Notes: generated by a model not told the origin, from the letters alone. Counted from the stretch's first letter, positions 10,615 to 41,563 are shown. The stretch is 64,000 bases of DNA from Candidatus Kapaibacterium sp. (GCA_963664875.1 OY761611.1:768001-832000), one strand, 5' to 3'. Translations and numbers: made by a program.

Positions 10615-10642
10615 AAATTTATATATAAGAAGAAGAGACTAT

Positions 10643-11266: not shown

Positions 11267-11275
11267 GGTTATCCC

Positions 11276-12220: not shown

Positions 12221-12401
12221 ATCTGTTAAGAAACAGCAAATTAAACTACAGTTATGTTTGCCAATAATTTATAATAAAATCTCCGAAATAAAAAGAGAAT
12301 TGTGTAAAAAATAACCACTTTTTCCGTTTTTAGTGTAAAAAAAATGCCATTGTCAATATTTTAACAAAGGCATCCTGTTTTATTTAATATTTATGCAAGA
12401 T

Positions 12402-12968: not shown

Positions 12969-13162
12969 TTTCTGATTCCTTAATGGTTTTGTGTTGCTTA
13001 TATTTTGTTCTACGACCTTAATCAACGAATAGTTGCAATTTTTGTTGACAATATTGATTTTCTATGTAACAAAATTGTCTCTAATCCATCTCTTATATAT
13101 CTCACAACGACTATGAATATGTATTTTAGTATTTTATTGAAGATTATTAAATCAATATAAGG

Positions 13163-26300: not shown

Positions 26301-27534
26301 CAGAAGCCATAAGGACTGATTTTAGCTCTTTTGGAGAGTACTCCGGGTATTTTTCTTTCAGCAATGCCAAAGCAGCAGATATATGAGGAGCAGCAAGTGA
26401 TGTACCGCTTGTTTCTGTATAATCATTATTCACAGAGGTAGTATAAACCAAGGAACCGGGGGCACAAATATCTAATCGTGAACCATAATTTGATGCTCCA
26501 TAAAGATTGCCTTTGTCTGCAGTCCCTCCTACTGAAATAACTTCATCGTAGTCAGAAGGGTAATGACGGTAAAAAGAACCACTATTGCCTGAAGAGGCTG
26601 CAATTACTACCCCCATATCAAAAGCAAATCGAACAGCTGCCTCAACAAGCGGAGATTTTGTAGATTGTCCAAAACTAAAATTGAGTACATCTACACCATT
26701 CAAGGCTGCATACACTATCGCTCTTGCTATATCATCAGACTCACCATTTCCCGTTATGTCAAACGCACGAAGAGCCATAAGTTTGGAATCAAAAGCAAGT
26801 CCCTGCACACCCTCACCATTAACTCTTTGAGCAGCTATAACTCCGCTTACTTTAGTTCCATGATGATTTTCATCATTTGGTATCGGATCAATGGCTCTAT
26901 AATCTCCAACGTTTGCAACCGACTGATCAACAAAATCATAACCTATTACATCATCGATATAGCCGTTACCGTCCTCATCTTTGCCATTCAAATCACCATA
27001 GACGCCATCTATTTCCTCTTCGGAACTCCATGCATCAAATTTTCCGTTTCCGTTTAAGTCTTCTTTTGAATTGATCCAAATGCTATTCCGTAAATTTTTA
27101 TGCAGATAGTCTAAGCCCGTATCAACTACACCTACGACAATGCCTTTGCCTGTTGCATATTTCCATGCTTCAGGAGCATTGACCTGACTTAAAGCCCATT
27201 GTCCATCAATAGAAACTCCGGTTTGTTCAATTTGAAATATCACGTTTTCGTATATTTTATAAGATATATCAGAAGATTCTAAATTGCTTTTAAGCTCAGA
27301 GAGATTTTCACTTTCAACTATGTAGAAATTTTCCAATTCGTTGACAGATTGCTTTGCTGAAAGAGAAACATCACTTCTCTGCTTGAATTCTTTAAGAGTT
27401 TTAGAATCCAAAAACGATTTAGCAATTTGATTTGGTACCGCAGATTTGCCTTCTACCTTGATTATATAAGAATTAGAATTGGCGAAAAGAGGTAAAGAAG
27501 CAATCAGAAAAATCCATATATATCTTATCATCAT
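23323..27534 (-). CDS. Secreted S8 subtilisin-like serine peptidase with FG-GAP/VCBS repeats, FN3 and a C-terminal sorting domain
   Basis: VVDTG, HGTKVSG, SGTSLAAPH triad; DFDNDGK repeats; YVYPNP...GVYIY. Confidence 0.9.
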   Translation of the reverse strand: MMIRYIWIFLIASLPLFANSNSYIIKVEGKSAVPNQIAKSFLDSKTLKEFKQRSDVSLSAKQSVNELENFYIVESENLSELKSNLESSDISYKIYENVIFQIEQTGVSIDGQWALSQVNAPEAWKYATGKGIVVGVVDTGLDYLHKNLRNSIWINSKEDLNGNGKFDAWSSEEEIDGVYGDLNGKDEDGNGYIDDVIGYDFVDQSVANVGDYRAIDPIPNDENHHGTKVSGVIAAQRVNGEGVQGLAFDSKLMALRAFDITGNGESDDIARAIVYAALNGVDVLNFSFGQSTKSPLVEAAVRFAFDMGVVIAASSGNSGSFYRHYPSDYDEVISVGGTADKGNLYGASNYGSRLDICAPGSLVYTTSVNNDYTETSGTSLAAPHISAALALLKEKYPEYSPKELKSVLMASAFDYKGDGWDIYTGAGFLDAAAALLEKSPSLIEITSPKFEGGIIKENYEKYQVEGTVLTPLFDSYSVYLGYGILPQEWFVINENAKEQIRDGILSEFNPSNFKDTTYTVRLVVKLKNGKTIEQRKFLDLISSDSKPAISDFRILNGYEEDRRVKLISITTNRPTIAELEIKSSLKSIIKIKDTDSETQNHLFVLDSLHDGDYNVIAELIDRAGNKVSKIEAFSVENYNMQKDKFVMKSYSTRMAYLSNVVADFANNEKPSIIINDGENLADDKTIAVVFDNNQFQPVDSTEIPWAVVGKGDSNGDGKVEFIATNYGKTSVFQESNGKYFSSPLFKSNEMYTMWAAGMYDFDNDGKDDIIMYNDTSYFVYQYANGEYKYKTTAVVPPRYLKVSIALGMAVADFDNDGKAELAHSDSYGRLYIHEYNGGKFSFEYIDTTAIFPNTVYMQKCDIDGDGTPEIVMGNYGSYSLNGKYDAGSNVWYYRIYKFSEGQGYQIIWEENFTEIRAGQIPRVNSFYKNGLSVGDIDNKKGEEFVISTFPNLYAFTWDALQKKIVPLWYYPSAYSVATVIYDFDKNGVNELGFSNFSRTVFYEYDSNYEGPDVPTGFEGWAISDTSAYLKWERAKNADYYKIYRIVRDSQSAKAVLTAVTDQMNVTIDTLQPNTSYEFVIQSVSLTLTDTESVLEDSDLVTVFTHQMIEPVFGVFTEKTLNVKYSGALALSGLNAFDFALFDSDGENNYKIQQVLSTSDSILIVTFFEDIPNGTYTFASGVFKDYYNSPSIEKSIELVKDLPFAEEEMYLKSLRVLSQGVLFVKFSHPIDDISALDVANYTLSPDGEISFAERDLTDSTQVMLALSSSKRLTAKGIDYLLTVRDVIAADGTPITKGAGNSLGFVITSEDTDEKAYVYPNPIAIGQRPDIYFAELPARCRIDVFRLDGEFVISIEEDDGNGGEKWDGKDINGTYITPGVYIYRITYQEAGSEEVTSTKKFLVKP

Positions 27535-27543
27535 AATATCCGA

Positions 27544-28845
27544 TTATTTAACTAATAAATCACTTGGTAAAACGGGCATAGAAAGTAATTCTTTGAAAAG
27601 TTGCCATCTTTTTTCCGGCTTATTTTCAGTACCACCAAGGCTATTTATGTACTTATCCACCATATCCTGTCCAAGATTATAATTGATTACATAAGAGCGA
27701 TATGTATCAATAAAATCCATTAGTTTAGTAGCTCTAAGTTCAGATTGAAGTTGATACTTCATTTTAAAAGCTATAGCCTCTTCCCTTGTCATCTTGCCAT
27801 CTAAGTAAGCTCGAGCAGCATCATTTCCTGCGTATGTAAGTTTCGCTGCTATTTCCATTATCTCATAATATTTCTCAACTTCATTAGGATCGAACCCTGC
27901 CAATGGAAAAATAACATTCTTTTCAAATTCAATCCTCTCATTACCCGGGAATGCAGTTTTGATACCAAAATTAGCAGTCCCCTCAGAAATCAATGCCTGA
28001 GGACTAAAAAGAGGGTAAATCGAAAATTCGACCATGCCTTTCTCTTTAACCATATTTTTTTCGATGAGACTGTGGTATGCATGATGTCCCGGATAGCCCT
28101 CGTGGCAAGCCAAATCTACTGCTCTATCCACATAAATCGGCAGGTCCATATTAACTTCAATTAGACTAAAAGCATTGCCTTTAAACCAATTATAAGCTCC
28201 CCATGGTTTATCATTTACATACTCAACTTTGAAATTCTCCCCTGCCGGCAGAGTTAAATATTTTTCCGTCCTTTTTCTACCTTCAGCTATCGCAGCGTCA
28301 AACACAGCAGGAACTTTATCTTTAGGAACAATAAATTTATTTCTATATTCATTGAATCGTACGGCAATATCACCTTTGCCCGGCAATAAAGTATCTAATT
28401 CAGCGACTAACTTTGCATAATGCTCTTCCGGAAAAGTAGGAGACACTGCATCGTAAAGAGCCTTAGATTCTTCATCAAAGCTAATCTTTGAACCTTCCAG
28501 ATATTTAATGCGTGCAATCGCGGATTCTAACATCCTTTTGAGATATTTCACTCGTGATTCAATCTCAACTTTTTGCCAGTCATATTTCAAATTATTCAGC
28601 TCAACAATAAGCTGTTCTGCGGATTTTTTTATCTCTTTTAATGATAATTTGGAAGATAAAGCTGCTTTTTTAAGACTGTCCGGGCCAAAGTAAGCATCTA
28701 CATAATTTTCATCGTACTCGCCAATTTGAAAGATTACATTTACATACTGATTCGCGATTGAATTTAGCTGAGATTGAATATTTTCTTTAGGCTGCTCGCA
28801 AGACATTAGCAGAATTATAAATCCAATCATAAATATATATTTCAT
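27544..28845 (-). CDS. DUF885-like lipoprotein (putative metallopeptidase fold)
   Basis: Lipobox LMSC; LACHEGYPGHH, SEGTAN, YVINYNLG. Confidence 0.7.
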   Translation of the reverse strand: MKYIFMIGFIILLMSCEQPKENIQSQLNSIANQYVNVIFQIGEYDENYVDAYFGPDSLKKAALSSKLSLKEIKKSAEQLIVELNNLKYDWQKVEIESRVKYLKRMLESAIARIKYLEGSKISFDEESKALYDAVSPTFPEEHYAKLVAELDTLLPGKGDIAVRFNEYRNKFIVPKDKVPAVFDAAIAEGRKRTEKYLTLPAGENFKVEYVNDKPWGAYNWFKGNAFSLIEVNMDLPIYVDRAVDLACHEGYPGHHAYHSLIEKNMVKEKGMVEFSIYPLFSPQALISEGTANFGIKTAFPGNERIEFEKNVIFPLAGFDPNEVEKYYEIMEIAAKLTYAGNDAARAYLDGKMTREEAIAFKMKYQLQSELRATKLMDFIDTYRSYVINYNLGQDMVDKYINSLGGTENKPEKRWQLFKELLSMPVLPSDLLVK

Positions 28846-28846
28846 T

Positions 28847-29860
28847 TTAAATCTCTCCAATAATATTAACTTCTCTTTCTAATCTAATACCAAATAGATT
28901 TTCAACTTCATCTATTATCCTTTGCGACAAATTATATATATCTTTTCCGCTCGCATTACCATAATTAATAAGAATTAGAGCATGCTTTTCGGAAACACCT
29001 ACATCGCTGATTCGTGTGCCCTTCAAACCGGCTTTCTCTATTAACCAGGCGGCAGAAACTTTGTACGCATCTTCAAATACATACAATGGCACATTTGTGT
29101 ATTTTACCTTCAATTCTTCCGCAGTCTCAATTGAAACTATCGGATTCTTAAAGAAACTTCCGGCATTGCCGTAGTATCTATAATCAGGCAATTTATTTTC
29201 TCGTACTTGGCATATATAATCAAACAACTCAATCGGCGAAAAGTTCTTAGATTGGGCAAACTTTTCGCTCAACTCCTTATATTTTAGTATCGGTTGATAT
29301 TTTTTCTTCAATCTATATCGAACTGAAGTAATGATAAATCTATTTTTTAAAGAAGTTTTAAAGATAGAGCTACGATAGGAGAATTTACATTTCTCTTTTG
29401 AAAAAATGAGCGTTTCTGCTGTATCTCTTAAAACACCTGTCAGTGAGTCGAAACATTCTTCCTGTTCAATACCATAAGCACCTATATTTTGTACAGGAGC
29501 AGCTCCAACAGTACCCGGGATAAGTGCCAAATTTTCTAAACCATAATGTCCATGCTTAAGACATTCTTCAAGAAATTCATGCCAGATTACTCCTGCTCCA
29601 ACTTCAATTAAGACACTTTCGTCACTATCTTCAATAACTCTAAGTCCCTTAATATCATTTTTTATTGCATCACTATATTTATCATTGACATAGAGGATAT
29701 TTGAACCACTACCAATAATGAAAGCAGTTTCCGAGCAATCTTCGCTGTTTAGATAACGAATCACATCATCATGGGATTGGATTAAAACCATCTTATCAAG
29801 CTCAGCTTTTACACCAAAAGTATTAAACTGCTGCAAGTTTACATTTCTTAGTATTTTCAT
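28847..29860 (-). CDS. murB: UDP-N-acetylmuramate dehydrogenase
   Basis: NTFGV, GSGSN, GLENLALIPGTVGAAPVQNIGAYG, GNAGSFFKNP, KHALILIN, LEREV. Confidence 0.96.
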   Translation of the reverse strand: MKILRNVNLQQFNTFGVKAELDKMVLIQSHDDVIRYLNSEDCSETAFIIGSGSNILYVNDKYSDAIKNDIKGLRVIEDSDESVLIEVGAGVIWHEFLEECLKHGHYGLENLALIPGTVGAAPVQNIGAYGIEQEECFDSLTGVLRDTAETLIFSKEKCKFSYRSSIFKTSLKNRFIITSVRYRLKKKYQPILKYKELSEKFAQSKNFSPIELFDYICQVRENKLPDYRYYGNAGSFFKNPIVSIETAEELKVKYTNVPLYVFEDAYKVSAAWLIEKAGLKGTRISDVGVSEKHALILINYGNASGKDIYNLSQRIIDEVENLFGIRLEREVNIIGEI

Positions 29861-29942
29861 TACTTATTTGTGCTAATGTAAAAAAACAAAGATACAAATA
29901 TCACCCCTCTCTTTCTAATCCCAACACACCCTGGCACAAAAA

Positions 29943-29981
29943 AAAGCCGGCACTTTATTTTTGAGGTAAAGTGCCGGCTTT
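29943..29981 (-). terminator. 15-bp inverted repeat / terminator downstream of the large secreted-protein gene
   Basis: AAAGCCGGCACTTTA...TAAAGTGCCGGCTTT, with a poly-A (minus-strand U) tail at 29938-29945. Confidence 0.8.
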
Positions 29982-30027
29982 GGTGAGTTAGCGTTTGCTT
30001 CGTTTGGCAAATGCGGTGTTTTTTGGA

Positions 30028-33000
30028 TTATTTCACTACATTTACTTTACGTGTGATTACGTAGCCGTCTAATTCGATTACTAATGTGTAGCTGCCGCTT
30101 GTCAAGTTTGATGCGTCGATTGTTACTTCGCTGCCGTCAAAGTTGCCCTTTGCGTATTCTACTACTTTGCGTCCGCTCATGTCGCTTAAGTAAATGTTTG
30201 CTGTGCTTGCGCCGCTTACTTTTACTTTAGACTGTGCACTTACAGGATTTGGTGTTACTTCGCCTACCATCAAGTTGTTTGGTGCGCTTAGTTCCACTTC
30301 TTCGATTTCGCTGTATTCGAATTTTCCGCTGCGTTCTATCATTTTTAGTCTGTATGCATATTTTTTGCCTAATTCTACGCCGTAATCTGCTGTGTTGTAG
30401 TTGCGTACTGAGTGGCTTGTGCCGCTTGCGCTTACTTCTGATACTTTGCTGAATAGGTCTGCATAGCCGTCTGTAATTTCTGTTCTTTCTACTTCGAAGC
30501 GGTCACTTTCGATTTCTGATAAAGTTGACCAGTTCAAATCTACTCGGTTGCCTACTGCTTTTGCATCAAATGTTGCCAATTCGATTGGAATTATGATGCC
30601 GCCGTTTGCTTCTGCGAAGTCAAATACGCTTCTTAGCATTTTTTCGATGTCTGCTATGTGGCGCCAGTCTGCTCCTAAGTAGCATATATTTGTTCCGATT
30701 GTTGTTGTGGCTACACCCATGATTTTTTCTTCCGGTAACAATGTGCTTGTGCCGTTTAGTTCATTTGTGTAGTAGTATGCCAACTTAACTCTACCTTCGC
30801 CGCCGTCCCACATGTCAACTAATGCTGGGTTTGGTGCTGCGTCGCCTACGAAGTTTGTTGGTGCTATTATGTTTGTTAGGTTTCTGCCTACGCTGCTGCC
30901 GGTTACTTCTGTGTAGTCGATTACTTCAGGATTTGCTTTTACGCGGTCTGTAGCTCTGAATAAATCGCGTGCTACTACGCCGTTGTTTCTGATCATTTCC
31001 TGTGATGCTAAAATCAAGTTTTTCTTATCGATTGAAGTTCCGTTTGCAAAGTAGTTTTCTATGTCTAATTGTTCGTAACGTGATAATTTTACATCTGCAT
31101 CGCCCATCACATCGTGTGCGTCTGACCATACTACTGTGCGGTAGTGACCATAATCTATGGCTCTTGCTTCCCAGTTGTTTCTGTCTAATACGTCATAGTC
31201 GATTGTGTCGTTGGCGATTGTTGTTGCTGTCGGATTGATTGCTACTTTCCAGCCTACAAAGCTCAAACCGTTTACTACGCGGTCGTGGTTCAATTTACCT
31301 GCGATTTCTGTTAGGCTTGGTGTGTTGCTCAAGTCTGCATTTACATATTGGCTGCTTACCAACATGTTCATCCATGAGCGGCGAATGAAGAATCTTACGA
31401 TTTTTGATGTTTCGTTGTTTGTGTTGTCTTCATCGCTTTCTGTTACTATCATTATTTTGTAGCGTGGTGTTACGTTTGCTGTCATTTCTGAATATACTTC
31501 AGGTACTGATGCTGCATAGCTTGGGTTCAAACGCAAGTCTGCATACGTTTCTGGTACAAATTCCAAGCCTTTGCCATCGGCAAGGTTGAAGTTTACATCA
31601 ACGTATTCATAAGTTGTTGCATCTACTTTTACTGTTTGTTCGTAGTCCGGTGCTGCACCGAATGTACCATTTGGCAATTCACGATAGATTTTTACTGTTA
31701 CTTCTGAGCCTGTTTGGAATAAGCTACCGTTGTTTCTCAAACGTGCACTTACTTCTACAGGGGCTTCTGTCATGATGTGTTCTGCATCTGCAAAGATACC
31801 TTCTGTTGCACGGTATGATGCAGGTGCTGTGATTGTAGTTGATTCCATATCGCTTACATATACGCGTCCGTTAAATTCTAACGCACCGATGTCGTATCTC
31901 TGACCTGCTTCGCCGCGTACTTTGCCTGTGATGTCGCTTGTTGTTACATCTAGGATATCGCCACGGTTATTTAGTACTGAGTTCAATGGCATTGGGTTTG
32001 ATTTAACGCGTAAGTTCTGTGGATTTGTTCCTACAAATGCGTAATCTGTCATGAATTTTGAATATACTGAGTATTTGTCTGCTCCTGCCCATGCTTGCCA
32101 TTGTGCCAATGTTTTGTATTCATTGATTGCTGCATCTGACAATTTGTTGCCGGCTGCATCTGTTTCTATCCAACGGTAAACTGATGATGCTGAGTTTTCT
32201 GTCCAATATACGTTGCGGTCAGAAATTACGCCTGCCTCTTCCATTGAAGGTCCTTGGTAGAACACGCATGCTGATACAGGGCAAGTTGCTGCATAGTCGT
32301 TATCCATTGTTGCGATTGCGTTGTTTTTGAGTACTGTACCCATTACGTTTTGAAGACCTACGCCCATTACTGCACGTGTGTTCATTACGCCGTCATCGCC
32401 GTTTACTATGATTGTATTATTTACGATTGCGTCATTTCTTGAGAAGTAATCTGACTGCAATGGTGAGTCAAAACTGTTGCGTTGTGTGAATACGTAAATA
32501 CCTGCTCTTGCTGTATTTGCGTCGTTTGGCAACAATTCCCATACGATGTTACCTGCGATTACCATTGATTCAGGATTTACCGGGAATGTTGTAAGCAAGC
32601 TACCTTCGATTAGCTGTTGTGGTGATTGCTCTACGCGAATACCACTTACCATGCCTGTACCGCTGATGCTGCTGATTTCGTTGTTCAATATGTTTACCAT
32701 ACGGTTGTTGTAGCCGAAATAGCCACGTGCTGACTGACCGCCTGCCATGATACCTGCTGCGTCAAGGCCTGTGCAACCGCCTTCGATGTCATATATTCTG
32801 TTACCGCTGATTTCTGTGTGTTTTTCATGACCTACAAAAACGCCTGCGCGGCCTACATTATGAATTACGTTGTTGCTGATTACGTTGTTTTCGTTGAAAT
32901 GCTCTACGTTATGGCCTAAACCTTGTACGAGCAACTGACCGATACCCATAGAAGCAACACCATAAGCGAATCCGCTGATTTCGTTGTTCATGATTACGTT

Positions 33001-35484
33001 GTTTGCATTTACAAGGGTATCAAGACCGTCTGTGTTTGCATTGAATTTTTCGTTAATCGGTGCTTTACTGCGCATCACGATACCGGCTGTGTAAGCCAAT
33101 GTATTTGAGCGTTTGTCTGCTTCGTATTTGAAGCCGCCCTGTGCTGCTGAATATACTGTCAATGGCAATGAGCATTTGAAGCTGCCTGCATCTGTACCTT
33201 CGATTATACAATTTTTGATTGTATTGTTTGATGCACCGTTACCCAAATAGAACACTGCTTTGAATGGTTCGTCTGTGTCTAATGTGAATTTGATTGATTT
33301 CTGGCTGCCACCATCAAATGTGATGTAACCCGGTGAATTTGCATAGTCACGTTTCAATGTTGCTCTTACTACATTAATTGCTGCTGCTGCATTGCTGTGC
33401 TCTGCTGCCTGGGCAATGAACACACCAATACCGTTACCGCTTTTCATGTTAATTGTAATTGAACCTTTGCTCACTGCACGGCTTTGTGATGGTTTGAACA
33501 CGATTGGGTGATCTTCGCCGCCGCCGATGATGTGTGATGACAAGTCCATTGCAGGATTTTGGCCAATTTTGCTACCTACTGTGTATGATGCATCTGTCAA
33601 TTCAAATGTTACAGGACCGTAAACACCTGATTCATATATCATATCCAATGCATCTTGGATTGTAGCAAAGTTACGTGTGCTTGATGAGTTTGTTGTACCG
33701 ATTGTGTATGTACCTGACAAGGAGTTAATAACTGTGAATGTTGTTTCATACATATCATTAGCTTTATTGTCATCTGTTGTTAGTGATGTATATACTTTGG
33801 CTGTATATGTGCCTGCCATTGCAGGGATAAATTCTACAGGCAAGTATTCTTTCATTGTGTTGTATAAGCCTGATGGTACTACTTCTACTTCGAAGTCTTC
33901 ATCATAAACTACTGCGCCGTTTGGTGCTTTGATTTGCAATTTTGTCGGTACGTTAGATAAGTCAAGAATACCGTTGTTTTTTAATTCGATTCTTGGGATT
34001 ATCGGACGACCTACATAGTTATTTGAGCCTACAGGTGCGATTACTGCTATTGGCTGTGCATCGCGTTGGTATGCTACTTCAAATACGTGTGCAGCCTGGC
34101 CAACTTTTGGATATACGTTGTTTGCAGGTGCTTCGTCAAATGCACTTATCAATTCCACTTCAAATTCGATGCGGAAATTACCAACACCGTCTTTGGCTCT
34201 GTATGGATCTAATTCCATTACTGTCAAATCGCCTGTTGATAGTGGTGCTGATGTATTTTTCCAGCGTTCTGACGTTTCGAATACAGGATTTGTTCCGTTT
34301 TCAGGATATACTTTTGCTGTGATTTCAAATTCGCTTACATCATAAAGACCTACGTTTGTTACTGTTGCTGTGATTGGAACAGGAACGTTTTTGCCATATT
34401 TCATTTTTGGCATTTTGATTGGTTTTCTTACTGATGTAATTGCAATATCATTGTCGATTGCGATTACAAAATCTTTATATTTTGTAAGTGTCATAGGCTG
34501 ACCTTCAAAGGTGAAGCTTAGCTCAGCTATTGCACGGTATGAACCACCTTCGATTTGCAACTGATTTGTCTGTAAATCAAACACACCTGTGTTGTCAGGA
34601 TTTGCTGTGCCACCTACGTTGTCAGGGTTGTTTGCATCATATTCTGCTGCCAAACCTGTTGCATGAGTTACTGTCATTCTTGCAACTTCGCCTAATGGCT
34701 GCGGGTTTGGTGTAATTAAGTTAGATGCTACATTGCCTTCTACTTTTGCTTCATAAACTACTGTTTCTAATGGCAAAGGGCCAATTACTTTGTATTTATA
34801 AGATATGTTTGGCATGCCATCTACGCGTTTTACGTCAACCCATGGTTGTCCCATTTTGTAGCCACGTGAAAATACGGCTACGCCATCTTCGGGATTCTCT
34901 GGGAAGAGATCAACGATATCCGGTGTCTTTGGTTTTACAATTAGGGTATAGTCAAGTGCTTGCCCATATCCATATGTACCGCAACCAGTGTTTAAGAAAG
35001 TATTATCATAGCTGTATTCTGTATTAAGGAGTCTCATTCTGTACTCACCACCATCTACATCTTGTGGTATTTGGATGGTAACTTGATGCAAACTTGCGTA
35101 ATTAGGAGATTTCCAAATCATTTCATTTTCATCTTCAAAATCTCCATCATAGTTGAAATCAACGAGAATAGAAACTCCGTTTTGATATTCATAAGTGTCG
35201 TAAGTCAACCAATAAAAACCGGTACACTCGAAATCCACCATGTCCCCGGCAGTAACAGTTAGTGTAGGATGAGATGCTGTCAAGTCTGCATAGCCTATAT
35301 TTATAAATTCAGCATCGGAGTTCAAAAAATCTTCTCCGTTGAATTTGATTGTAATGAAACAATCGGGGCTTGTTCCATATGCAGTACAAGCAGCAGGTGG
35401 AGTTGCCCAAACCTGCAGAGTAGTAACTATGGCGATAGCCACTACTGCGAAAATACTTTGTAGGAATCTTTTCATAAGACTCAC
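30028..35484 (-). CDS. Large secreted surface protein (GEVED-like N-terminus, CARDB/Ig-like domains, parallel beta-helix, T9SS-type CTD)
   Basis: Signal peptide; VDFNYDGDFED..E...GEYRMR...GQALDYT; GTYTIG...FATIQDA; N-rich PbH1 repeats; IPIELATFDA; TPNP...LTSGSY..KVNVVK. Confidence 0.8.
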   Translation of the reverse strand: MSLMKRFLQSIFAVVAIAIVTTLQVWATPPAACTAYGTSPDCFITIKFNGEDFLNSDAEFINIGYADLTASHPTLTVTAGDMVDFECTGFYWLTYDTYEYQNGVSILVDFNYDGDFEDENEMIWKSPNYASLHQVTIQIPQDVDGGEYRMRLLNTEYSYDNTFLNTGCGTYGYGQALDYTLIVKPKTPDIVDLFPENPEDGVAVFSRGYKMGQPWVDVKRVDGMPNISYKYKVIGPLPLETVVYEAKVEGNVASNLITPNPQPLGEVARMTVTHATGLAAEYDANNPDNVGGTANPDNTGVFDLQTNQLQIEGGSYRAIAELSFTFEGQPMTLTKYKDFVIAIDNDIAITSVRKPIKMPKMKYGKNVPVPITATVTNVGLYDVSEFEITAKVYPENGTNPVFETSERWKNTSAPLSTGDLTVMELDPYRAKDGVGNFRIEFEVELISAFDEAPANNVYPKVGQAAHVFEVAYQRDAQPIAVIAPVGSNNYVGRPIIPRIELKNNGILDLSNVPTKLQIKAPNGAVVYDEDFEVEVVPSGLYNTMKEYLPVEFIPAMAGTYTAKVYTSLTTDDNKANDMYETTFTVINSLSGTYTIGTTNSSSTRNFATIQDALDMIYESGVYGPVTFELTDASYTVGSKIGQNPAMDLSSHIIGGGEDHPIVFKPSQSRAVSKGSITINMKSGNGIGVFIAQAAEHSNAAAAINVVRATLKRDYANSPGYITFDGGSQKSIKFTLDTDEPFKAVFYLGNGASNNTIKNCIIEGTDAGSFKCSLPLTVYSAAQGGFKYEADKRSNTLAYTAGIVMRSKAPINEKFNANTDGLDTLVNANNVIMNNEISGFAYGVASMGIGQLLVQGLGHNVEHFNENNVISNNVIHNVGRAGVFVGHEKHTEISGNRIYDIEGGCTGLDAAGIMAGGQSARGYFGYNNRMVNILNNEISSISGTGMVSGIRVEQSPQQLIEGSLLTTFPVNPESMVIAGNIVWELLPNDANTARAGIYVFTQRNSFDSPLQSDYFSRNDAIVNNTIIVNGDDGVMNTRAVMGVGLQNVMGTVLKNNAIATMDNDYAATCPVSACVFYQGPSMEEAGVISDRNVYWTENSASSVYRWIETDAAGNKLSDAAINEYKTLAQWQAWAGADKYSVYSKFMTDYAFVGTNPQNLRVKSNPMPLNSVLNNRGDILDVTTSDITGKVRGEAGQRYDIGALEFNGRVYVSDMESTTITAPASYRATEGIFADAEHIMTEAPVEVSARLRNNGSLFQTGSEVTVKIYRELPNGTFGAAPDYEQTVKVDATTYEYVDVNFNLADGKGLEFVPETYADLRLNPSYAASVPEVYSEMTANVTPRYKIMIVTESDEDNTNNETSKIVRFFIRRSWMNMLVSSQYVNADLSNTPSLTEIAGKLNHDRVVNGLSFVGWKVAINPTATTIANDTIDYDVLDRNNWEARAIDYGHYRTVVWSDAHDVMGDADVKLSRYEQLDIENYFANGTSIDKKNLILASQEMIRNNGVVARDLFRATDRVKANPEVIDYTEVTGSSVGRNLTNIIAPTNFVGDAAPNPALVDMWDGGEGRVKLAYYYTNELNGTSTLLPEEKIMGVATTTIGTNICYLGADWRHIADIEKMLRSVFDFAEANGGIIIPIELATFDAKAVGNRVDLNWSTLSEIESDRFEVERTEITDGYADLFSKVSEVSASGTSHSVRNYNTADYGVELGKKYAYRLKMIERSGKFEYSEIEEVELSAPNNLMVGEVTPNPVSAQSKVKVSGASTANIYLSDMSGRKVVEYAKGNFDGSEVTIDASNLTSGSYTLVIELDGYVITRKVNVVK

Positions 35485-35809
35485 CTATTAGTTTAACAAA
35501 CAAGAATATATTCTGTCATGTAATATATTTAGAATGCAATATATATAAACCATAACACAATCTCAACCGCTTTGTTACAGTGTTTTTATTCTTTTTTCAA
35601 CACCCAAACACTTTGCATTGCATTATAACTTCAGAAACAATTACTTCCGCAACTTTTACAGACTTATTTTGATTTGTATAACTTCATAGCAATATATTTT
35701 ATAAGACTATTTGGAATGCTTTATCTGTTTGTATGTAATCTATTTTGTCTTTTTTTTTATTGTTTTTTGTTTGTAGTTTGTTTGCACTTAGTATTTAAAA
35801 GGTATTGTT

Positions 35810-36937
35810 ATGAAAATGGATATATACAAAATTGGCGGGATTGTTTTTAGAACGCCTCAGGGCTTTGAAAGCCTTAAGGAAGTTCTCAATAATCAGAATC
35901 AAAATACTTTTATTGTTGTGTCAGCCATAGGGAAAACATCTCGTAACTTGCGAAGCTGCATAAACTTTGCTGCTGCAGGGAAGTTTGAAGAATCGATTGA
36001 TATGGTTGACTCTATTATAGACTTACATGAATCATTGGCAGATTCGATTCTTTCTGAAATAAATCGAAAAGCTTACGACTCCTTTTTGAATAATAGGAAA
36101 AATTTATTAGCCGAAAAACTAAAAGGACTTAGCTTGATTAAGGATATTAGTCCCTCAATTTCTGATTATATTTTGGCTGAAGGCGAGAATTTAGCTTTAC
36201 AACTCATTTATTTATTTATTGAAGAACACTTTTCTTCTATTACAAAACTCTCTTCGGAACAACATATTGTTACAAATAATAACTATGGGAAAGCAATACC
36301 TCAACGAGAAATTTGTATTGATTTGATTCAAAATTCTATCAAAATTTTTCCCACAAAATTTTATATGATGCAGGGTTTTTCTGGCATTTCTTTAGAAAAA
36401 AAATTATCAACAATGGGTTTTGAAAGTTCAAACCTTACCGCATGTATTGTAGCGGCTGCAGCTGATGCAAAAGAACTGGTAATATGGAGCGATGTTGACG
36501 GAATTTTTGGAATAGATCCTAAGTTTGCTCCTTCTCGTCAGTTGGATCACTTGTCTCTTGAAGACGCTAAAAAATTGGCATTAGAAGGCTTGAAGTTGAT
36601 TTACTTACCAATGATAGAATATTCGAAAGAGTATGGATTTGATATTCGAATTAAAAACATATATAATCCTAATGCCCAAGGCACTCTAATTTCTTACGAT
36701 GTAAAAACGGATGATTTCCCTGTTATAGTCATGAAAGAGGATGGTGCAACAGATTTGGAATTATCTATAAATTTTATTGATTACACAAAAGCATTGTTCC
36801 TATTAAGTCAATTAACTAATAAACAAGTCTTTACTTCGGAATATAGGTATATGGACAAAAAACTTCAACTCCGATTCGATAACTCGACTATTTCCAATGT
36901 TGCATTATTAAAGGAAATTGGTAGTATTTTGTATTAA
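35810..36937 (+). CDS. Aspartate kinase-like protein (divergent, no clear ACT domains)
   Basis: IYKIGG, IVVSAIGKT, LAEGE, MQGF.G, IWSDVDGIF..DP. Confidence 0.75.
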   Translation: MKMDIYKIGGIVFRTPQGFESLKEVLNNQNQNTFIVVSAIGKTSRNLRSCINFAAAGKFEESIDMVDSIIDLHESLADSILSEINRKAYDSFLNNRKNLLAEKLKGLSLIKDISPSISDYILAEGENLALQLIYLFIEEHFSSITKLSSEQHIVTNNNYGKAIPQREICIDLIQNSIKIFPTKFYMMQGFSGISLEKKLSTMGFESSNLTACIVAAAADAKELVIWSDVDGIFGIDPKFAPSRQLDHLSLEDAKKLALEGLKLIYLPMIEYSKEYGFDIRIKNIYNPNAQGTLISYDVKTDDFPVIVMKEDGATDLELSINFIDYTKALFLLSQLTNKQVFTSEYRYMDKKLQLRFDNSTISNVALLKEIGSILY

Positions 36938-36942
36938 TTTTG

Positions 36943-38370
36943 TTATGAGCGTGAGGAAAAATTCTTTATAAAAGCAAAGTTCTCGTAGTTAACCCTTATA
37001 GTCAGATAAATACCGAGAGCTAAAAGAAAGAAGCTGCCTCCCCACATCGACCAAAAAGGAGATACGATTCCTTCATCTCCGAGCTTTTCTCCACCAATCA
37101 GAAACACCCAATAAATAATATAAAATCCTAAAGATATCGCGGCACTGATTCCAAAGTTGCCTCCTTTGGTCATTACTCCGAGAGGGCAACCAACTAAAAC
37201 GAAAATCAGGCAGGACAGCGGCATCGAATATTTTTTGAAAATTTCTACCTGATATGCTGCAGCACGGCTTGTATAAGAATCAATTCTTGATTTGTTGGAG
37301 CTCAAAATGCCAAACATTGTTGTAAGCTGTTGAGAAATGCTCCTGAATGTAACAGATGAGTCATGAACCTGATTGACAGATAATAATCTATGTTCGGTTT
37401 TTGTGGTATTTGTATCTCTCAGAGCGGATATTACATTCTGGTTGCTAATATCACTATCAACTATTTTTTCTTTTTCTCTTTTACCAGTCAAAATATATGC
37501 GAGATGCGCATCTAACAACTTTTCACTTATATCTGCAAGCGAATCTGCGTTTCTGAGGTTCCCTTCTGATATTAGTTCCATAGCTTTAATCGGAAGCTCT
37601 CTTTCGCCTTTGCTAATATCACCTTCCTGCGTTCTTTCCAATTCGAAACCTTTGGCAGGTACTGAGATATTATACTCTTCGAAAGTTATTATTTTGTAGT
37701 CATGTGGCGATTCTTTTTTGAATCTGTGTATCTCGCCGTGATACAAATCAATACTCAGCTTTCCCCCACCGGGAGCAGATTTGATAACCCCAGAGTCAGC
37801 AGAAATAATATTTTCTTGTTTATATCCACCTGATTTGTCGTAAATAGTTACTGCATACAGATTGCCGTTTGAAGAATCTACCCTTTGCGGAAAAATCGTA
37901 AATCCATCTAAATCCGAAGATACTTTACCGGATTCTAAAGCAAATGTTGGTCGTAAGCGATGCAAATCCATAATCAGGGTTTTGAGTCTATGATTTGTAT
38001 CGGGCAACACATAATCATTGAACCAAAACATTGCACCTGAAATTACTATCCCAAAAAAAACCGGATACCTCATCATCCTAATCAGGCTGCCACCGCTTGC
38101 TTTGACAATTGTTACCTCACTTGTAGAAGAAAGATTACCAAATGTCATAAGACAGGAAAACAGAACACCCATGGGCACAGCTAAAACTAAAATCCAAGCT
38201 AAAGTTAGAGTCAATAACTCTCCAATCACCATTAGCTGAATACCTTTGCCTAAGAGATTGTCTAACTCTTTCATAATAAACTGCATAAGGAACAAAAACA
38301 TAACTGTTCCTACCCCAAACAAGAAAGGTGCTGTAAGGTGTTTGACTATATATCTATCTATAATTTTCAT
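36943..38370 (-). CDS. lptF: LPS export ABC permease LptF
   Basis: MKIIDRYI..., LAVPMGVL..LMTFGNLS..SEVT..KASG, VEIFKKYSMP..C.IFVLVGCPLG. Confidence 0.85.
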   Translation of the reverse strand: MKIIDRYIVKHLTAPFLFGVGTVMFLFLMQFIMKELDNLLGKGIQLMVIGELLTLTLAWILVLAVPMGVLFSCLMTFGNLSSTSEVTIVKASGGSLIRMMRYPVFFGIVISGAMFWFNDYVLPDTNHRLKTLIMDLHRLRPTFALESGKVSSDLDGFTIFPQRVDSSNGNLYAVTIYDKSGGYKQENIISADSGVIKSAPGGGKLSIDLYHGEIHRFKKESPHDYKIITFEEYNISVPAKGFELERTQEGDISKGERELPIKAMELISEGNLRNADSLADISEKLLDAHLAYILTGKREKEKIVDSDISNQNVISALRDTNTTKTEHRLLSVNQVHDSSVTFRSISQQLTTMFGILSSNKSRIDSYTSRAAAYQVEIFKKYSMPLSCLIFVLVGCPLGVMTKGGNFGISAAISLGFYIIYWVFLIGGEKLGDEGIVSPFWSMWGGSFFLLALGIYLTIRVNYENFAFIKNFSSRS

Positions 38371-38511
38371 TAGTAAACTCGTAGTTTTGTGCTTTTTCAA
38401 ATATATGATTTTCTCGAAACAAAATAATTCATATTATTTATTTGGAATATATTTTATTGTTTAATATCTTTGTATCTCAATATAGTATATAATCAAAGAA
38501 AAGGAAATACA

Positions 38512-38880
38512 ATGTACACGGTTTTGATGATTTTGACTCTATTAGCATCTGTGTTGCTAATTTTAGTTGTCTTGGTGCAACCAGGTAAAGGCGAAATGAT
38601 TTCAGGAATGAGCGGTCTTGGCGGTGCAATGAGTTCTGCTTTTGGCTCGACTCGAGCAGTAAAAGGCTTACAAAAACTTACTATATACCTCGCAGCAATC
38701 ATAGCAGGCTTAGTGCTTGTTATCAATTTATTCTTCGTAGGTCAGAGCGGTACATCAAACGCTCCTAAACCTGTAACAGAAGGTGCAGCAGTTCCTGTAA
38801 CTGAACAAACTACTCAAACTCCTGTTGCTAAACCTCAGGTTGAAAAAACTCAAGAAGCTCCGGTTGAAGAAGCAAAATAG
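38512..38880 (+). CDS. secG: Preprotein translocase subunit SecG
   Basis: LLILVVLVQPGKG...SSAFG...LQKLT. Confidence 0.88.
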   Translation: MYTVLMILTLLASVLLILVVLVQPGKGEMISGMSGLGGAMSSAFGSTRAVKGLQKLTIYLAAIIAGLVLVINLFFVGQSGTSNAPKPVTEGAAVPVTEQTTQTPVAKPQVEKTQEAPVEEAK

Positions 38881-38909
38881 TCTAATAAAATATATAAATA
38901 TTTTTGTTC

Positions 38910-38946
38910 GAGCTGTGTCTTTTTTAAAGATACAGCTTTTTTTTTC
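38910..38946 (+). terminator. Intrinsic terminator after secG
   Basis: AGCTGTGTCTTT..AAAGATACAGCT followed by poly-T. Confidence 0.7.
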
Positions 38947-39003
38947 TATTCCTGTGACAAAATGCTGCTTAAATTGTTTATATATAAAAGCGTATGAGGG
39001 GTA

Positions 39004-39582
39004 ATGCCGGACAATATGAAAAATATTACTGACGAAGTCTTATATTCTATGTTAGCTAATAAAGACGGAAGCGAAAAATCCGCCTTTGATGAGCTATATA
39101 GTCGCTATGCGTCAAAAATATATTCCTATTGTCTAAAAGTTATGGCAAGCGAAGAGACAGCCCAAGATATTTTTCAGGAAGCATTCACAAGAGTTTTTGA
39201 GAGTGCGAAAAAAAATACTTCGATGCAAAATTTTGCCGGATTTTTTATAAAAATCACTCGAAATCTATGCTTAAACGAAAAATCTAAAAAGCACCATAAG
39301 AATATTGAATTAGATGATTTCCAGTTTCCGGTTTACGATAAGTCATACGCACAAAAAGAATTGCTGGATTTGCTACAGATTACTGTAGATGAATTGCCGT
39401 TAGAATTCAAAGAAGCTTTTATACTCAAAGAATACATGAATATGAGCTACAAAGAAATAGCCGAAGAACTAAATTTGAGTGTTTCTACGGTTAGGATTAG
39501 AATATACCGAGCCAGATTGAAAATTAAAGAAATCATGGCTCCATATATAAGCGATATACAAAAAGGTGAAAACAATGTTTGA
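39004..39582 (+). CDS. ECF RNA polymerase sigma factor
   Basis: AFDELYSRY, AQDIFQEAF, RNLCLN, MSYKEIAEELNLSVSTVRIRIYRAR. Confidence 0.93.
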   Translation: MPDNMKNITDEVLYSMLANKDGSEKSAFDELYSRYASKIYSYCLKVMASEETAQDIFQEAFTRVFESAKKNTSMQNFAGFFIKITRNLCLNEKSKKHHKNIELDDFQFPVYDKSYAQKELLDLLQITVDELPLEFKEAFILKEYMNMSYKEIAEELNLSVSTVRIRIYRARLKIKEIMAPYISDIQKGENNV

Positions 39583-40807: not shown

Positions 40808-41563
40808 ATGAGAAAAACCATAAACATATTTCTGTCATTGATGATAATCGGATTTGTGGCTTGTACTTCTCCGCTTGATGTCCCTGCAAACCGAGAGGAA
40901 TATATTGACAATGCAAAAAGCAATTCTTTGCTTAATATAACTCCCACTACGCTCAATTTTGGCTATATCAATCTCTATGAAGAAGCTAAAATGCCATTTC
41001 AAATGACAAATATGAATACTTACGCTTACAAGCTGACTTCGCTGAACTTCGGGAAAAATACTAAGTTTTTTTTATATGATCTTGATTTGCCTATAGAAAT
41101 TGACAAAAAGGACACTCCAGGCTCAATCCAGCTGTTTCATGTAAGGTTTGCCCCTTTTTCTATTGGCGAGTTTTCTGACACTCTTGAAACAAATGGACTG
41201 ACAAATCCCAAGCTGATAGTACAGGCAATCGTTCCACATATTTTTGTTACAGACTTAAATTTTGGAACTATCTATGCCGGCGACAGCACAAGTAGAAATA
41301 TTATGGTTTATAATTACAGTGGCGAAAAAATTTCTGTAAAAGAGATTAAGTTTCATGACCAGGATGGTGTTTTTTACTGCAATTCCTATTTTGACACCGA
41401 AATAGATTTATTCGAAAAAACAGGAAAGCCGCTCGAAATCCCTATTACCTTTTATTCTACCAAAGAAAGCATCTTTAATGCCAGCTTAGAAATAATATTT
41501 GAACAAAGTCTAAGCGGAAAGCTGATTAAAAATACTGCAATTTTGGAAGCTGCTGCATTTTAA
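40808..41563 (+). CDS. Lipoprotein with two Ig-like (ASH/choice-of-anchor D-like) domains
   Basis: Lipobox FVAC; PTTLNFG..VRFAP..G.FSDTL and DLNFGTI..ITF. Confidence 0.6.
   Translation: MRKTINIFLSLMIIGFVACTSPLDVPANREEYIDNAKSNSLLNITPTTLNFGYINLYEEAKMPFQMTNMNTYAYKLTSLNFGKNTKFFLYDLDLPIEIDKKDTPGSIQLFHVRFAPFSIGEFSDTLETNGLTNPKLIVQAIVPHIFVTDLNFGTIYAGDSTSRNIMVYNYSGEKISVKEIKFHDQDGVFYCNSYFDTEIDLFEKTGKPLEIPITFYSTKESIFNASLEIIFEQSLSGKLIKNTAILEAAAF

Follow-up and report, generated by a model that had tools for sequence, protein, structure and literature searches.

The tuf genes are one example of concerted evolution by gene conversion. GC-biased gene conversion is known to be strand-symmetric and cannot alter the A:T ratio. 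Surface proteins that combine a constant with a variable part are familiar from the cassette variation of pilE/pilS and vlsE and from diversity-generating retroelements (DGRs), whose homing is 3'-anchored beside a hairpin. Further cases of concerted evolution among prokaryotic paralogues, such as amoA/haoA, have been surveyed, and the excerpts of that survey on which we draw already carry the idea that conversion can spread optimised codons among copies (PMC6053082). For the Porphyromonas gingivalis T9SS cargo proteins RgpA, Kgp and HagA, which share C-terminal adhesin modules, recombination and allelic exchange have been proposed as the source of diversity in the excerpted text of PMC5266723. 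Concerted evolution and codon bias have mostly been studied apart, and the gene family described below joins both.

The window analysed here, a 64,000-nucleotide stretch of a Candidatus Kapaibacterium sp. genome (GCA_963664875.1, OY761611.1:768001-832000), contains a large surface-protein gene, g1, with full-length paralogues g2 (genome 2,698,733-2,704,189, plus strand) and g3 (3,275,827-3,281,388, minus strand) elsewhere in the genome (G000). As in the cases excerpted from PMC6053082, copies within a genome are far closer to each other than to orthologues, and the situation recurs in several species. Unlike those cases, as the same excerpts describe them, the g1 family is homogenised only in a 3'-anchored part with nested 5' borders, and this part has a codon dialect that differs from the rest of the open reading frame and runs partly opposite to the preference of ribosomal-protein genes. 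The proteins resemble RgpA, Kgp and HagA, likewise large T9SS surface proteins and from the same wider lineage, in having shared C-terminal and variable other parts, although they are unrelated in sequence, and the available portion of PMC5266723 treats domain modularity and allelic variants and reports no effect on codon usage or strand composition. A likeness to GC-biased gene conversion may lie in a GC3 that is raised in every converted block (seven of seven genomes) and in an excess of W>S over S>W changes on the G000 branch (71 vs 24), although T>C changes are in excess in the unique part of g3 as well (40 vs 4). Unlike that process, the block shows no strand symmetry, because A/(A+T) in its four-fold boxes reaches 0.88 in G000, compared with about 0.42 in unique parts. 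Cassette systems and DGRs differ in that g1, g2 and g3 are all full-length genes with their own starts and a constant C-terminal part of 3-5 kb, and the family has neither a DGR-type reverse transcriptase nor A-specific differences between copies. Among Creative-Commons PMC papers and bioRxiv preprints, we found no description of a block-limited, strand-asymmetric codon dialect.

The g1 gene and its homogenised 3' block

The features of g1 and its 3' flank are collected in Table 1. The ATG at codon 4 is likely the true start. The translation opens with a hydrophobic stretch that looks signal-like by eye (beginning MKRFLQSIFAVVAIAIVTTLQVWA), continues with a GEVED domain (aa 104-181, Pfam E=1.5e-12) and closes with a T9SS type A sorting domain (PF18962, Por_Secre_tail, aa 1745-1814, E=1.7e-7, 31.9 bits with a cut-off of 27; TIGR04183, 32.5 bits with a cut-off of 23), which is found in g3 and in a fourth paralogue, g4, as well. 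The middle of the protein is weakly beta-helix-like. For this region, NCBIfam and lax Pfam searches gave sub-threshold beta-helix and MG2 matches alone, and the Atlas leads stay below 0.9, the one to beta-helix families scoring 0.77. A search for homologous proteins with g1 returned five, none usefully named. In uncultured Kapaibacterium-like bacteria sampled from wastewater and sediment, the family appears to represent a major surface protein that is expressed and varies between strains.

Table 1. Coordinates of g1, its segments and its 3' flank, counted from the first letter of the window
Feature	Positions	Strand	Description	Basis
g1	30028-35484	minus	1818-aa surface-protein gene	ORF list, translation
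Unique N-terminal part	34798-35484	minus	codons 1 to ~229	homology with g2 begins at ~codon 229
Two-copy block	33124-34797	minus	codons ~230 to ~787	at least 99% nt identity with g2 only
Three-copy block	30028-33123	minus	codons ~788-1818 and stop	at least 99% nt identity with g2 and g3
3'UTR	29982-30027	minus	coding-strand A19 C16 G5 T6	within shared block
Intrinsic terminator	29938-29981	minus	15-bp stem, 9-nt loop, eight U	
G/T-rich tail common to g1, g2 and g3	29901-29937	minus		homology ends ~127 nt past stop codon

A preliminary description of this locus had predicted that other parts of the genome would contain copies nearly identical at the C-terminus, with different N-termini but the same hairpin. 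The paralogues g2 and g3 are such copies, and g1 is thus neither single-copy nor without homogenised partners. Their shared segment is at least 99% identical at the nucleotide level, although the genomes are metagenome-assembled and polishing might inflate identity between copies. The segment begins near codon 230 in g1 and g2 and near codon 790 in g3, spans the stop codon, the 3'UTR and the terminator, and ends about 37 nt beyond the T-run. Upstream, amino-acid identity between g1 and g2 is 38-49% over codons 1-176 and climbs to 88% by codons 177-236. Across all three genes, 25 codons differ from codon 769 on, and of the codon differences between copies, 39 in all, most are C<->T exchanges at third positions. 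The fourth paralogue, with about 50% amino-acid identity, is unconverted and uses T-rich, ribosomal-protein-like codons. Same-genus orthologues share only 80-86% of their amino acids and about 0.65-0.73 of their third positions with the G000 copies, and within-genome likeness likewise exceeds between-species likeness in G001, G003, G004, G016, G026 and G035.

The mosaic genes, with discrete homology borders at codons ~229 and ~787 and ~127 nt past the stop, are flanked by unrelated housekeeping genes, the neighbours of the copies being an aspartokinase-like protein, MurB, LptF/G, RuvB, HlyD/AcrB, DUF494 and a histidine kinase. No mobile-element genes were found flanking any copy, and mobile-element flanks were rejected. 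The genes just upstream of g1 and g3 are equal in size but unrelated to each other. Nor is there a nickase, relaxase or templated reverse transcriptase near the copies. The single reverse transcriptase of the genome is an AbiP2-type enzyme in a defence island (PADLOC E=2.7e-192), and a retro-conversion machinery was rejected on this basis. RNA contigs from two metatranscriptome studies cover g1 but not its neighbours, which is a weak hint, as contigs cannot rank expression.

Contigs from other samples and studies point to the same arrangement. In DNA contigs from two other studies, depth is about 11 over the block and about 1-6 over its flanks, so the multi-copy state is independent of the present assembly. 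The suggestion of a constant C-terminus and a variable N-terminus extends to strains, because other-sample contigs diverge by about 1-1.5% in the block and by 27% over some 114 nt of the N-terminus. This hypervariability is seen as 31 differences in 114 nt at the g1 N-terminus in a contig from another sample.

The palindrome downstream of g1, which had been proposed as an initiation site, is a Rho-independent terminator of ordinary design. Its hairpin lies 46 nt past the stop codon and folds with -34.9 kcal/mol over 106 nt (z=-5.1), and a terminator pattern scan with a loop limit of 8 missed it for the length of its loop. It is near-identical in the three genes, except that in g3 the outermost stem position carries a single substitution and the T-run is longer by one T. 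Since the homology continues past the T-run, nothing marks the hairpin as a place of initiation. The flip of composition reported to its left is real, with A26 C20 G3 T11 on the plus strand of 29881-29940 set against the coding-strand counts of the 3'UTR in Table 1, but it concerns only about 50-60 nt that include the terminator T-run and the promoter region of the next gene. With an origin close to 2.09 Mb and a terminus close to 0.46 Mb, g1 and g2 lie co-directional with replication, whereas g3 is oriented head-on. Replication strand was rejected as a cause because g3 nevertheless equals g1 and g2 in composition.

Codon usage inside and outside the block

In bins of 100 codons from the 5' to the 3' end of g1, third-position A+C climbs from 0.45 to 0.85 and third-position T (T3) drops from 0.41 to 0.07. 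The hand counts with which this asymmetry was first noticed are exactly reproduced by computation (84 A/C-ending, 8 T-ending and 8 G-ending codons among the last 100; 26 of 60 codons T-ending at 34981-35160; and 2, 4 and 8 T-ending codons in 20 near 32041, 33901 and 34441). The claim of a gradient withstands full computation too. In logistic regressions, the dependence of T-ending on position has p=1.5e-18 when the whole gene is taken, p=7.8e-10 over codons 230-1818 and p=3.5e-6 within the three-copy block (790-1818), but is not significant within codons 230-790 (p=0.15). C-ending codons become smoothly more frequent with position (p=1.6e-8). Only the shared block carries the skew. The stepped 'gradient' follows from the passage from one copy to two and then three, and within the three-copy block T declines further and significantly. 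Values of third-position A+C span 0.43-0.57 where the sequence is unique, 0.64-0.70 where there are two copies and 0.66-0.85 where there are three. The unique N-terminal part of g1 has genome-like usage, with a T3 of 0.41. In the two-copy block, T3 is 0.21-0.28 and the four-fold boxes already end mostly in A (ACA 93%, GCA 81%). In the three-copy block, T3 drops from 0.24 to 0.07 while C-ending codons climb toward the 3' end.

No other genes in the genome have this usage. Over 2713 ORFs, A3+C3 averages 0.486 (sd 0.045) and is 0.695 in g1, and the third-position AT skew of g1 (+0.33; genome mean -0.06, sd 0.11) ranks fourth among the 2713, with a paralogue ranking fifth. Outside the family, one of 9654 windows of 100 codons has at least 84 A/C endings, in a low-complexity repeat protein, and none of the 9654 has 10 or fewer T endings. 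The dialect LLR is +0.35, +0.35 and +0.19 for g1, g2 and g3, with a genome mean of -0.57 (sd 0.13), and these three genes alone carry the dialect, the next-best scores belonging to a ribosomal-protein gene (-0.06) and EF-Tu (-0.13). It had been considered that ribosomal-protein genes might share the A/C wobble, and they do not. Their cluster and EF-Tu have T3 values mostly of 0.29-0.37 (range for the cluster genes 0.24-0.44), with GCT, ACT and GGT preferred. The unique parts of the family resemble ribosomal-protein codon usage (92nd-98th percentile), and the block looks like such usage minus its T-ending codons, with C3 at about 0.31 and G3 at about 0.09.

What replaces T depends on the codon box. 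The Ala, Thr, Val, Ser and Pro boxes, which have multi-copy U34 tRNA genes, use A in the block, and Gly, Arg, Asn, Asp, Tyr, Ile and Ser-AGY, read by G34/I34 tRNAs, move to C. C-ending codons of the former boxes are almost missing (GCC 0.07, ACC 0.03, and GTC, CCC and TCC 0.00). The tRNA genes of G000 include Thr-TGT in five copies, Ala-TGC and Val-TAC in four each and Gly-GCC in two. The genome is without C34 tRNAs for Ala, Thr, Val, Lys, Glu and Gly. Both Gln tRNAs are present, and Gln codons in the block are about even (CAA 0.55, CAG 0.45).

Dialect and non-dialect orthologues do not differ at codon positions 1 and 2, and only third positions shift. A drive at the amino-acid level was rejected on these grounds (the shift toward purines in G016 is only about +0.03-0.05). 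The idea that T is lost to keep an overlapping frame open was dropped because the ORF list holds no ORF of at least 100 aa overlapping the block in another frame. A need to avoid UV dipyrimidines on the non-transcribed strand was likewise set aside, given an inconsistent context effect and an observed/expected TT ratio of about 1.

Recurrence in related genomes

In all seven genomes that have both homogenised and unique windows, spanning four genera (G000, G001, G003, G004, G016, G026 and G035), T3 is lower in the homogenised ones. In six of the seven, purine-ending four-fold codons make up 0.82-0.88 of homogenised and 0.43-0.57 of unique windows. The genera are few and kin are not independent, which limits how these counts can be read. 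Pairs that are not homogenised (G011, G012, G019, G021 and G036) are nearly flat in all five genomes, with no step and T3 changes of at most about 0.1. The replacement base differs between genomes, being A/C in G000, G/A in G016, G in G026 and C in G035. G016 possesses C34 tRNAs and Arg-TCG, and its block uses G-ending codons and the normally rare CGA, ATA (0.75) and AGG.

The position of the step varies by gene (codon ~230, ~790, ~850 or ~1120), each time near the start of homology, and the change point for T-ending codons falls within about 95 codons of that start in 9 of 13 gene comparisons. In the gene G003a, T3 holds near 0.42 for the greater part of the first ~900 codons (0.37-0.50) and then drops to about 0.24 (0.20-0.28) at the homology border. 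A natural experiment on conversion at synonymous sites is provided by the orthologous type-A segment (codons 210-720). In G000 and G001, with two copies of this segment, it carries the dialect, and in G003a, with a single copy, the dialect has been lost. On the G003a branch, changes in this segment run A>T 29 vs T>A 3 and C>T 23 vs T>C 6. An excess of T>C is also seen in the unique part of g3 on the G000 branch (40 vs 4), so part of the C enrichment is lineage-wide and not specific to the block.

At the 3' side, homology ends at the terminator or no more than about 40 nt past it in five of six other genomes (G016, G035, G003, G001 and G004), and at the stop codon in G026. The non-coding 3'UTRs of G000 and G016 mimic the wobble composition of their own blocks. 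Two drafts, G002 and G039, have a step without a demonstrated partner copy, although G002 contains, at the end of a contig, a fragment with 90% identity.

Explanations for the loss of T-ending codons

We believe that the asymmetry is probably the codon-usage signature of a 3'-anchored block under concerted evolution, arising from gene conversion and a conversion-linked purge of T-ending codons, with tRNA-dependent selection as a filter. To judge from the sequences, recurrent RecA-type conversion, anchored on the conserved sorting domain and the terminator, would keep the copies identical, in tracts of variable 5' reach. A force tied to conversion would strip T from unconstrained coding-strand sites, tRNA-dependent selection would pick the replacement base, and W>S biased conversion may add to the rise of GC3. 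The steps in G002 and G039 speak against this reading, as do the other repeated genes of the genome, which shift little (median purine-ending 0.484, n=56, vs 0.441 in 1997 single-copy genes). A general law for all repeats was rejected, the shift being small and family members not independent.

As to the nature of the purge, we give nearly an even chance to a strand-specific bias inherent in conversion. Such a bias would amount to a new mutational or drive process, and we know of no mechanism that removes T from one strand of a conversion tract. The unshifted codon positions 1 and 2 argue against it, as does an outcome that varies by codon box and turns to the pyrimidine C in G035. A substantial share of the probability, short of even, goes to stronger selection for Watson-Crick-decoded codons in multi-copy, freely recombining DNA, with concerted evolution spreading the optimised codons. 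If so, conversion raises the efficacy of codon selection far beyond that in ribosomal-protein genes. Against this stand the preference for ACT/GCT over ACA/GCA in ribosomal-protein genes and in the unique stretches of the same mRNAs, the rare codons of the G016 block, and the 3'UTRs that echo the wobble composition in non-coding sequence. What remains of the odds belongs to a purge of some other kind.

It is conceivable, though rather unlikely, that conversion is both strand-specific and directional, such that a 3'-anchored process progressively removes coding-strand T from homogenised DNA and the tRNA pool only chooses the replacement base. The intermediate of such a process might, for example, be single-stranded or derived from a transcript and end at the terminator. 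If true, it would be a new molecular drive on bacterial synonymous sites, with block-limited dialects that arise when a segment acquires a conversion partner and fade when the partner is lost.

Translational selection alone seems to us improbable. On this account, g1 is a long and very highly expressed gene in which selection against ribosome drop-off grows along the frame, as in a nonsense-error model treated in the excerpted part of PMC13271495, and conversion is a by-product of high nucleotide identity. The match of block codons to the most numerous tRNA genes, the restriction to third positions and the smooth rise of C-ending codons all agree with it, as do the climb of C3 in the unique part of g3, a mild gradient in single-copy g4 orthologues and, as a weak hint, the RNA contigs on g1. 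However, profiles are flat-step-flat and not sigmoid, as the drop at the homology border of G003a illustrates, and the step codon differs by gene while always lying near the homology start. Moreover, 720 unique codons in g3 and 800 in G003a lack the dialect on the block's own mRNAs, and the account fits neither the ACT/GCT preference of ribosomal-protein genes nor the ATA, CGA and AGG of G016.

Quite improbable, in our view, is the earlier proposal that the template strand is repeatedly single-stranded from the palindrome onward (through nicking, strand displacement or local replication), so that deamination enriches coding-strand A and C. The gross composition (A+C up, G+T down), the 3'-to-5' gradient, the A/C-rich 3'UTR, the flip beyond the hairpin and the existence of the predicted paralogues would all fit, and depurination in addition would lead one to expect coding-strand T>A and C>A. 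Deamination (coding-strand G>A and T>C) nevertheless predicts an A/C mix in every four-fold box, and the near absence of GCC, ACC, GTC, CCC and TCC, with Gly and Arg going to C, contradicts it. The unchanged positions 1 and 2, the enrichment of G or C in G016, G026 and G035, a standard terminator with homology extending past it, and a composition shared by head-on g3 and co-directional g1 and g2 likewise count against the proposal.

Foreign DNA carrying a donor's codon usage and spread among resident paralogues would account for usage unlike the rest of the genome and a GC3 above background. It is very improbable given same-genus orthologues with 80-86% amino-acid identity that share the dialect, a dialect that fits host tRNA genes and varies between genera with tRNA sets and GC content, and the lack of mobile-element genes beside any copy. 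Selection for unstructured mRNA or single strands, in which wobble A and C cannot pair together, is just as improbable, because, although any intra-strand skew reduces self-complementarity and the predicted folding energy of g1 is flat while GC rises from 0.39 to 0.44, predicted folding in the g1 block is no weaker (-24 to -31 kcal/mol per 150 nt throughout), becomes more negative in the block of G026 (from about -40 to -46 in unique parts down to about -57) and, less regularly, of G035 (from about -40 down to -47 to -59), is essentially unchanged in G016 save in the last bin, and would be selected over the whole transcript and not in the shared part alone.

Under the conversion reading that we favour, one open reading frame holds two codon dialects that meet at the edge of gene conversion, as they do in four genera with different replacement bases. 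Block-limited dialects of this sort can imitate horizontal transfer in composition-based scans. Homogenised blocks also break the draft assemblies of this group, and in many relatives contig ends fall right at the block.

Codon usage of the surface-protein gene and its paralogues

The host genome (G000) is a single contig of 3.83 Mb with 36.2% GC, of which the window takes up positions 768,001-832,000, and the surface-protein gene g1, whose translated product has a hydrophobic N-terminus, was noted in a preliminary description for a graded strand asymmetry. All hand counts behind that observation were reproduced on recount. Along the gene, the fraction of codons ending in A or C (A3+C3) climbs from 0.45 to 0.85 and that ending in T (T3) falls from 0.41 to 0.07, a drop with position that is significant for the whole gene and also within its last 1030 codons (p=3.5e-6). 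When 2713 ORFs are ordered by third-position A-over-T skew, g1 and its paralogue rank fourth and fifth. Outside the family, 84 A/C endings are reached in one of 9654 windows of 100 codons, and no such window has 10 or fewer T endings. The lone window (86 A/C-ending codons) belongs to a low-complexity protein with tandem RGDRFGKGRDDRDN-like repeats. The ribosomal-protein genes and EF-Tu of this genome do not have the g1 pattern; an A/C wobble general to ribosomal-protein or highly expressed genes was therefore not found, and the asymmetry stands.

The same description had proposed a diversification system with a constant C-terminus, variable N-termini and a common hairpin, and a search of the genome for copies of g1 bore this out by recovering g2 and g3 (see table). 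Protein identity between g2 and g1 is 38-49% over the first ~180 codons, with the two near-identical by codon ~230, and for g3 it is 35-59% upstream of codon ~790. The near-identical, 3'-anchored segment (the block) spans the stop codon, UTR, terminator and 37 nt more, and there the homology ends. From codon 190 on, 39 codons differ among the copies, and five of these (codons 190-197) come before the homology begins at ~229; differences within the block are mainly synonymous C/T changes. No mobile-element genes flank the three copies, whose neighbours are unrelated housekeeping genes. In DNA contigs from two other studies the depth of the block is ~11 versus ~1-6 on its flanks, as three copies are expected to give, which indicates that the presence of several copies is no feature of the G000 assembly alone.

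Positions of the genes, domains and 3' elements discussed, with additional loci
Feature	Position	Strand	Description
g1	window 30028-35484	minus	one ORF, 1818 codons
g1 GEVED domain	aa 104-181		profile match
g1 T9SS type A sorting domain	aa 1745-1814		profile match
g2	genome 2,698,733-2,704,189	plus	99-100% nucleotide identity to g1 from codon ~230 on
g3	genome 3,275,827-3,281,388	minus	at least 99% identity to g1 and g2 from codon ~790
g4	tandem, upstream of g2		~50% identical throughout
Intrinsic terminator of g1	window 29943-29981		15-bp stem, 9-nt loop, then eight U; 46 nt past stop codon
Second hairpin with T-run	window 29991-30014	plus	within g1 3'UTR, on the opposite strand
Shared tail past terminator	window 29901-29937		37 nt common to g1, g2 and g3; G/T-rich, three G-runs (GGG, GGG, GGGG)
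Low-complexity protein gene	G000:C1:3187172-3188674		
Tandem gene pair	G000:C1:2457357-2465963		1373 and 1446 codons; outside the window
Defence island (L116)	G000:C1:3525556-3528978		AbiP2-type reverse transcriptase, Type IIG restriction-methyltransferase fragment, PD-T7-3-like gene
Tandem family genes of G006 (L050)	G006:C14:3023-8671 and 9051-14699		100% identical over full length

The block has its own codon usage, poor in T-ending codons, and this dialect is confined within the G000 genome to g1, g2 and g3. A3+C3 is 0.43-0.57 in the unique parts (codons 1-200 of g1 and g2, codons 1-720 of g3, and all of g4), 0.64-0.70 in the two-copy part and 0.66-0.85 in the three-copy part. The unique parts are not unadapted, since their usage is ribosomal-protein-like (92nd-98th percentile; GGT 0.61, ATC 0.42, G-ending codons almost nil), and the block is that usage minus its T-ending codons. 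From unique parts to block, ACT declines from 0.54 to 0.06 with ACA rising from 0.40 to 0.90, GCT declines from 0.45 to 0.04, GTT from 0.49 to 0.07, and GGT from 0.61 to 0.37 with GGC rising from 0.22 to 0.52. AAC, GAC and TAC replace AAT, GAT and TAT, and four-fold codons ending in C are still near zero. This usage is concordant with the 64 tRNA genes of G000, which include Thr-TGT and Asp-GTC (five each), Ala-TGC, Val-TAC and Ile-GAT (four each), Asn-GTT and Lys-TTT (three each), and Pro-TGG, Ser-TGA and Gly-GCC (two each). C34 tRNAs for Ala, Thr, Val, Lys, Glu and Gly are missing from this set. Gln has both of its tRNAs, and its two codons occur at similar frequencies in the block. The numbers of Thr-TGT, Asp-GTC, Val-TAC, Asn-GTT and Lys-TTT genes are unusual and fit the amino-acid and codon demand of the protein family; influence may therefore have run from this demand to the tRNA genes and not the other way round.

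The palindrome at which the asymmetry was said to flip is a textbook intrinsic terminator, missed by the hairpin pattern scan only because the loop limit was 8. The flip in composition is real: on the coding strand the 46-nt 3'UTR has A19 C16 G5 T6, and G and T prevail in the ~54 nt past the T-run. The stretch behind it is short, however, and includes the murB promoter region as well. The proposal that the palindrome initiates single-strandedness of the template, with ensuing deamination, was not supported. Paired with the main terminator, the second hairpin could allow termination in both directions; no gene on the plus strand runs towards the site. The shared tail has too few G-runs for a standard quadruplex, which needs four.

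Homogenisation and composition in related genomes

The surface-protein family is present in all 41 related genomes searched, mostly in multiple copies; the same-genus relatives are public metagenome-assembled genomes. Family matches often begin close to the end of a contig, at most a few hundred bases away (G002, G010, G014, G015, G018, G020, G023, G033 and G038), as expected if a homogenised block breaks short-read assemblies, in which case draft copy numbers are underestimates. Within-genome homogenisation anchored at the 3' end is also seen in six other genomes, with the homology ending at the terminator or a few tens of nucleotides past it in five (G001, G003, G004, G016 and G035) and at the stop codon in G026.

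All seven genomes that have both window classes show a lower T3 in the homogenised windows than in the unique ones, and in six of the seven the purine-ending share of four-fold codons is 0.82-0.88 in homogenised windows, versus 0.43-0.57 in unique ones. The replacement base depends on lineage, being A and C in the genus of G000, G and A in G016, G in G026 and C in G035. The G016 block includes ATA (0.75), AAG (0.94), CGA and AGG, and among the 44 tRNA genes found in G016 are C34 tRNAs and Arg-TCG, which are missing from G000. In nine of 13 comparisons the change point in T-ending codons falls within ~95 codons of the homology start; the four misses are g1 (with two shifts), G001a, G004a and one G035 pair with patchy identity.

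No composition step occurs in five genomes with two non-homogenised copies (G011, G012, G019, G021 and G036), and none is seen where the gene is single (G020, G025 and G030). The tandem family genes of G006 show no T3 depletion (0.47-0.60); they are probably a very recent duplication, which makes them a control in which copy number is raised but prolonged conversion is absent. The exceptions are two draft genomes, G002 and G039, in which a step occurs with no partner copy among the sequences fetched; in G002 a fragment with 90% identity lies at the end of a contig. In none of these genomes does a gene have the dialect in a stretch that was shown to be unique.

A natural experiment is offered by the two gene types of the genus, type A (g1-like) and type B (g3-like). 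The unique N-terminal ~720 codons of type B are 69-87% conserved across species and T-rich in all. Codons 210-720 of type A have the dialect in G000 and G001, where this segment exists in two copies; in G003, with only one copy of it, the segment is T-rich, with the protein equally conserved. On the G003 branch (outgroup G001) we counted 29 A>T versus 3 T>A changes and 23 C>T versus 6 T>C, counts that are indicative only because parsimony over-counts common-to-rare changes. In non-dialect parts, third-position identity across species is 0.54-0.60, which means that synonymous sites are near-randomised between species and that a dialect, wherever it is seen, must be under active maintenance.

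Explanations for the loss of T-ending codons

Something tied to homogenisation probably removes T-ending codons. Concerted evolution in prokaryotes has been described (PMC6053082), and the phenomenon reported here is a form of it with a reproducible coupling to codon choice. Concerted evolution may make weak selection for Watson-Crick-decoded codons effective and spread optimised codons among copies, the latter being an idea already in print (PMC6053082). The tRNA concordance and the confinement of the change to third positions favour this explanation. However, ACT and GCT are favoured both in ribosomal-protein genes and in the unique portions of the mRNAs that carry the block, the G016 block contains rare codons, and the non-coding UTRs of G000 and G016 (the latter with 13/17 purines by hand count) look like their blocks. 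All three points are accounted for if conversion itself is strand-specific and biased against coding-strand T, with selection picking the replacement base. This may be the case, although such a bias is without a known mechanism and leaves no trace at codon positions 1 and 2. The higher GC3 is probably a contribution of biased W>S conversion, a process unable to alter the A:T ratio.

Position-dependent translational selection is strained as a sole explanation, given that the profiles are flat-step-flat and the step tracks homology, not codon number. Nevertheless, C-ending codons climb smoothly, unique parts included, and a weak positional component probably exists in this rise. Template-strand deamination alone predicts A and C in every four-fold box, a shift at the first two codon positions as well, and identical bases across lineages, none of which is seen. 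A foreign origin of the block is rejected, as the dialect suits the host tRNA genes and is shared by same-genus orthologues. Selection for unstructured mRNA fails because predicted folding energies are not weaker in blocks, and replication strand fails because g3 is oriented against replication and g1 and g2 run with it. A diversity-generating retroelement (DGR) or other templated reverse transcription was excluded, the genome's only reverse transcriptase being an AbiP2-type enzyme in a defence island (see table), and UV-dipyrimidine avoidance was likewise excluded as the cause of T loss.

Expression, strain variation and a possible second case

RNA contigs from two metatranscriptome studies (runs X15 and X16) cover nearly the whole of g1 at 97-99% identity, with almost no cover of its neighbours within window 25000-41000 and none at 25000-29800 and 35150-38900. 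This suggests high expression of g1 in situ, though contigs are weak evidence that cannot rank expression. Divergence of these strains from g1 climbs stepwise towards the 5' end: the block differs by ~1-1.5%, and in the X15 and X16 contigs the N-terminal GEVED region (window 34953-35146) differs at 31 of 114 nt and at 42 of 465 nt. Such differences between close strains are population-level variation of the N-terminus. Modular T9SS cargo proteins with shared C-terminal adhesin domains have been described in P. gingivalis (PMC5266723). No report of a codon dialect confined to a converted segment was found among the Creative-Commons PMC papers and bioRxiv preprints covered.

The tandem gene pair listed in the table encodes proteins with identical C-terminal 40 residues. 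Its 3' ~3 kb is 86% identical at the nucleotide level up to the stop codon, and T3 falls there from 0.27-0.41 to 0.16-0.22. This pair may be a second, unrelated case in which homogenisation is coupled to codon choice.
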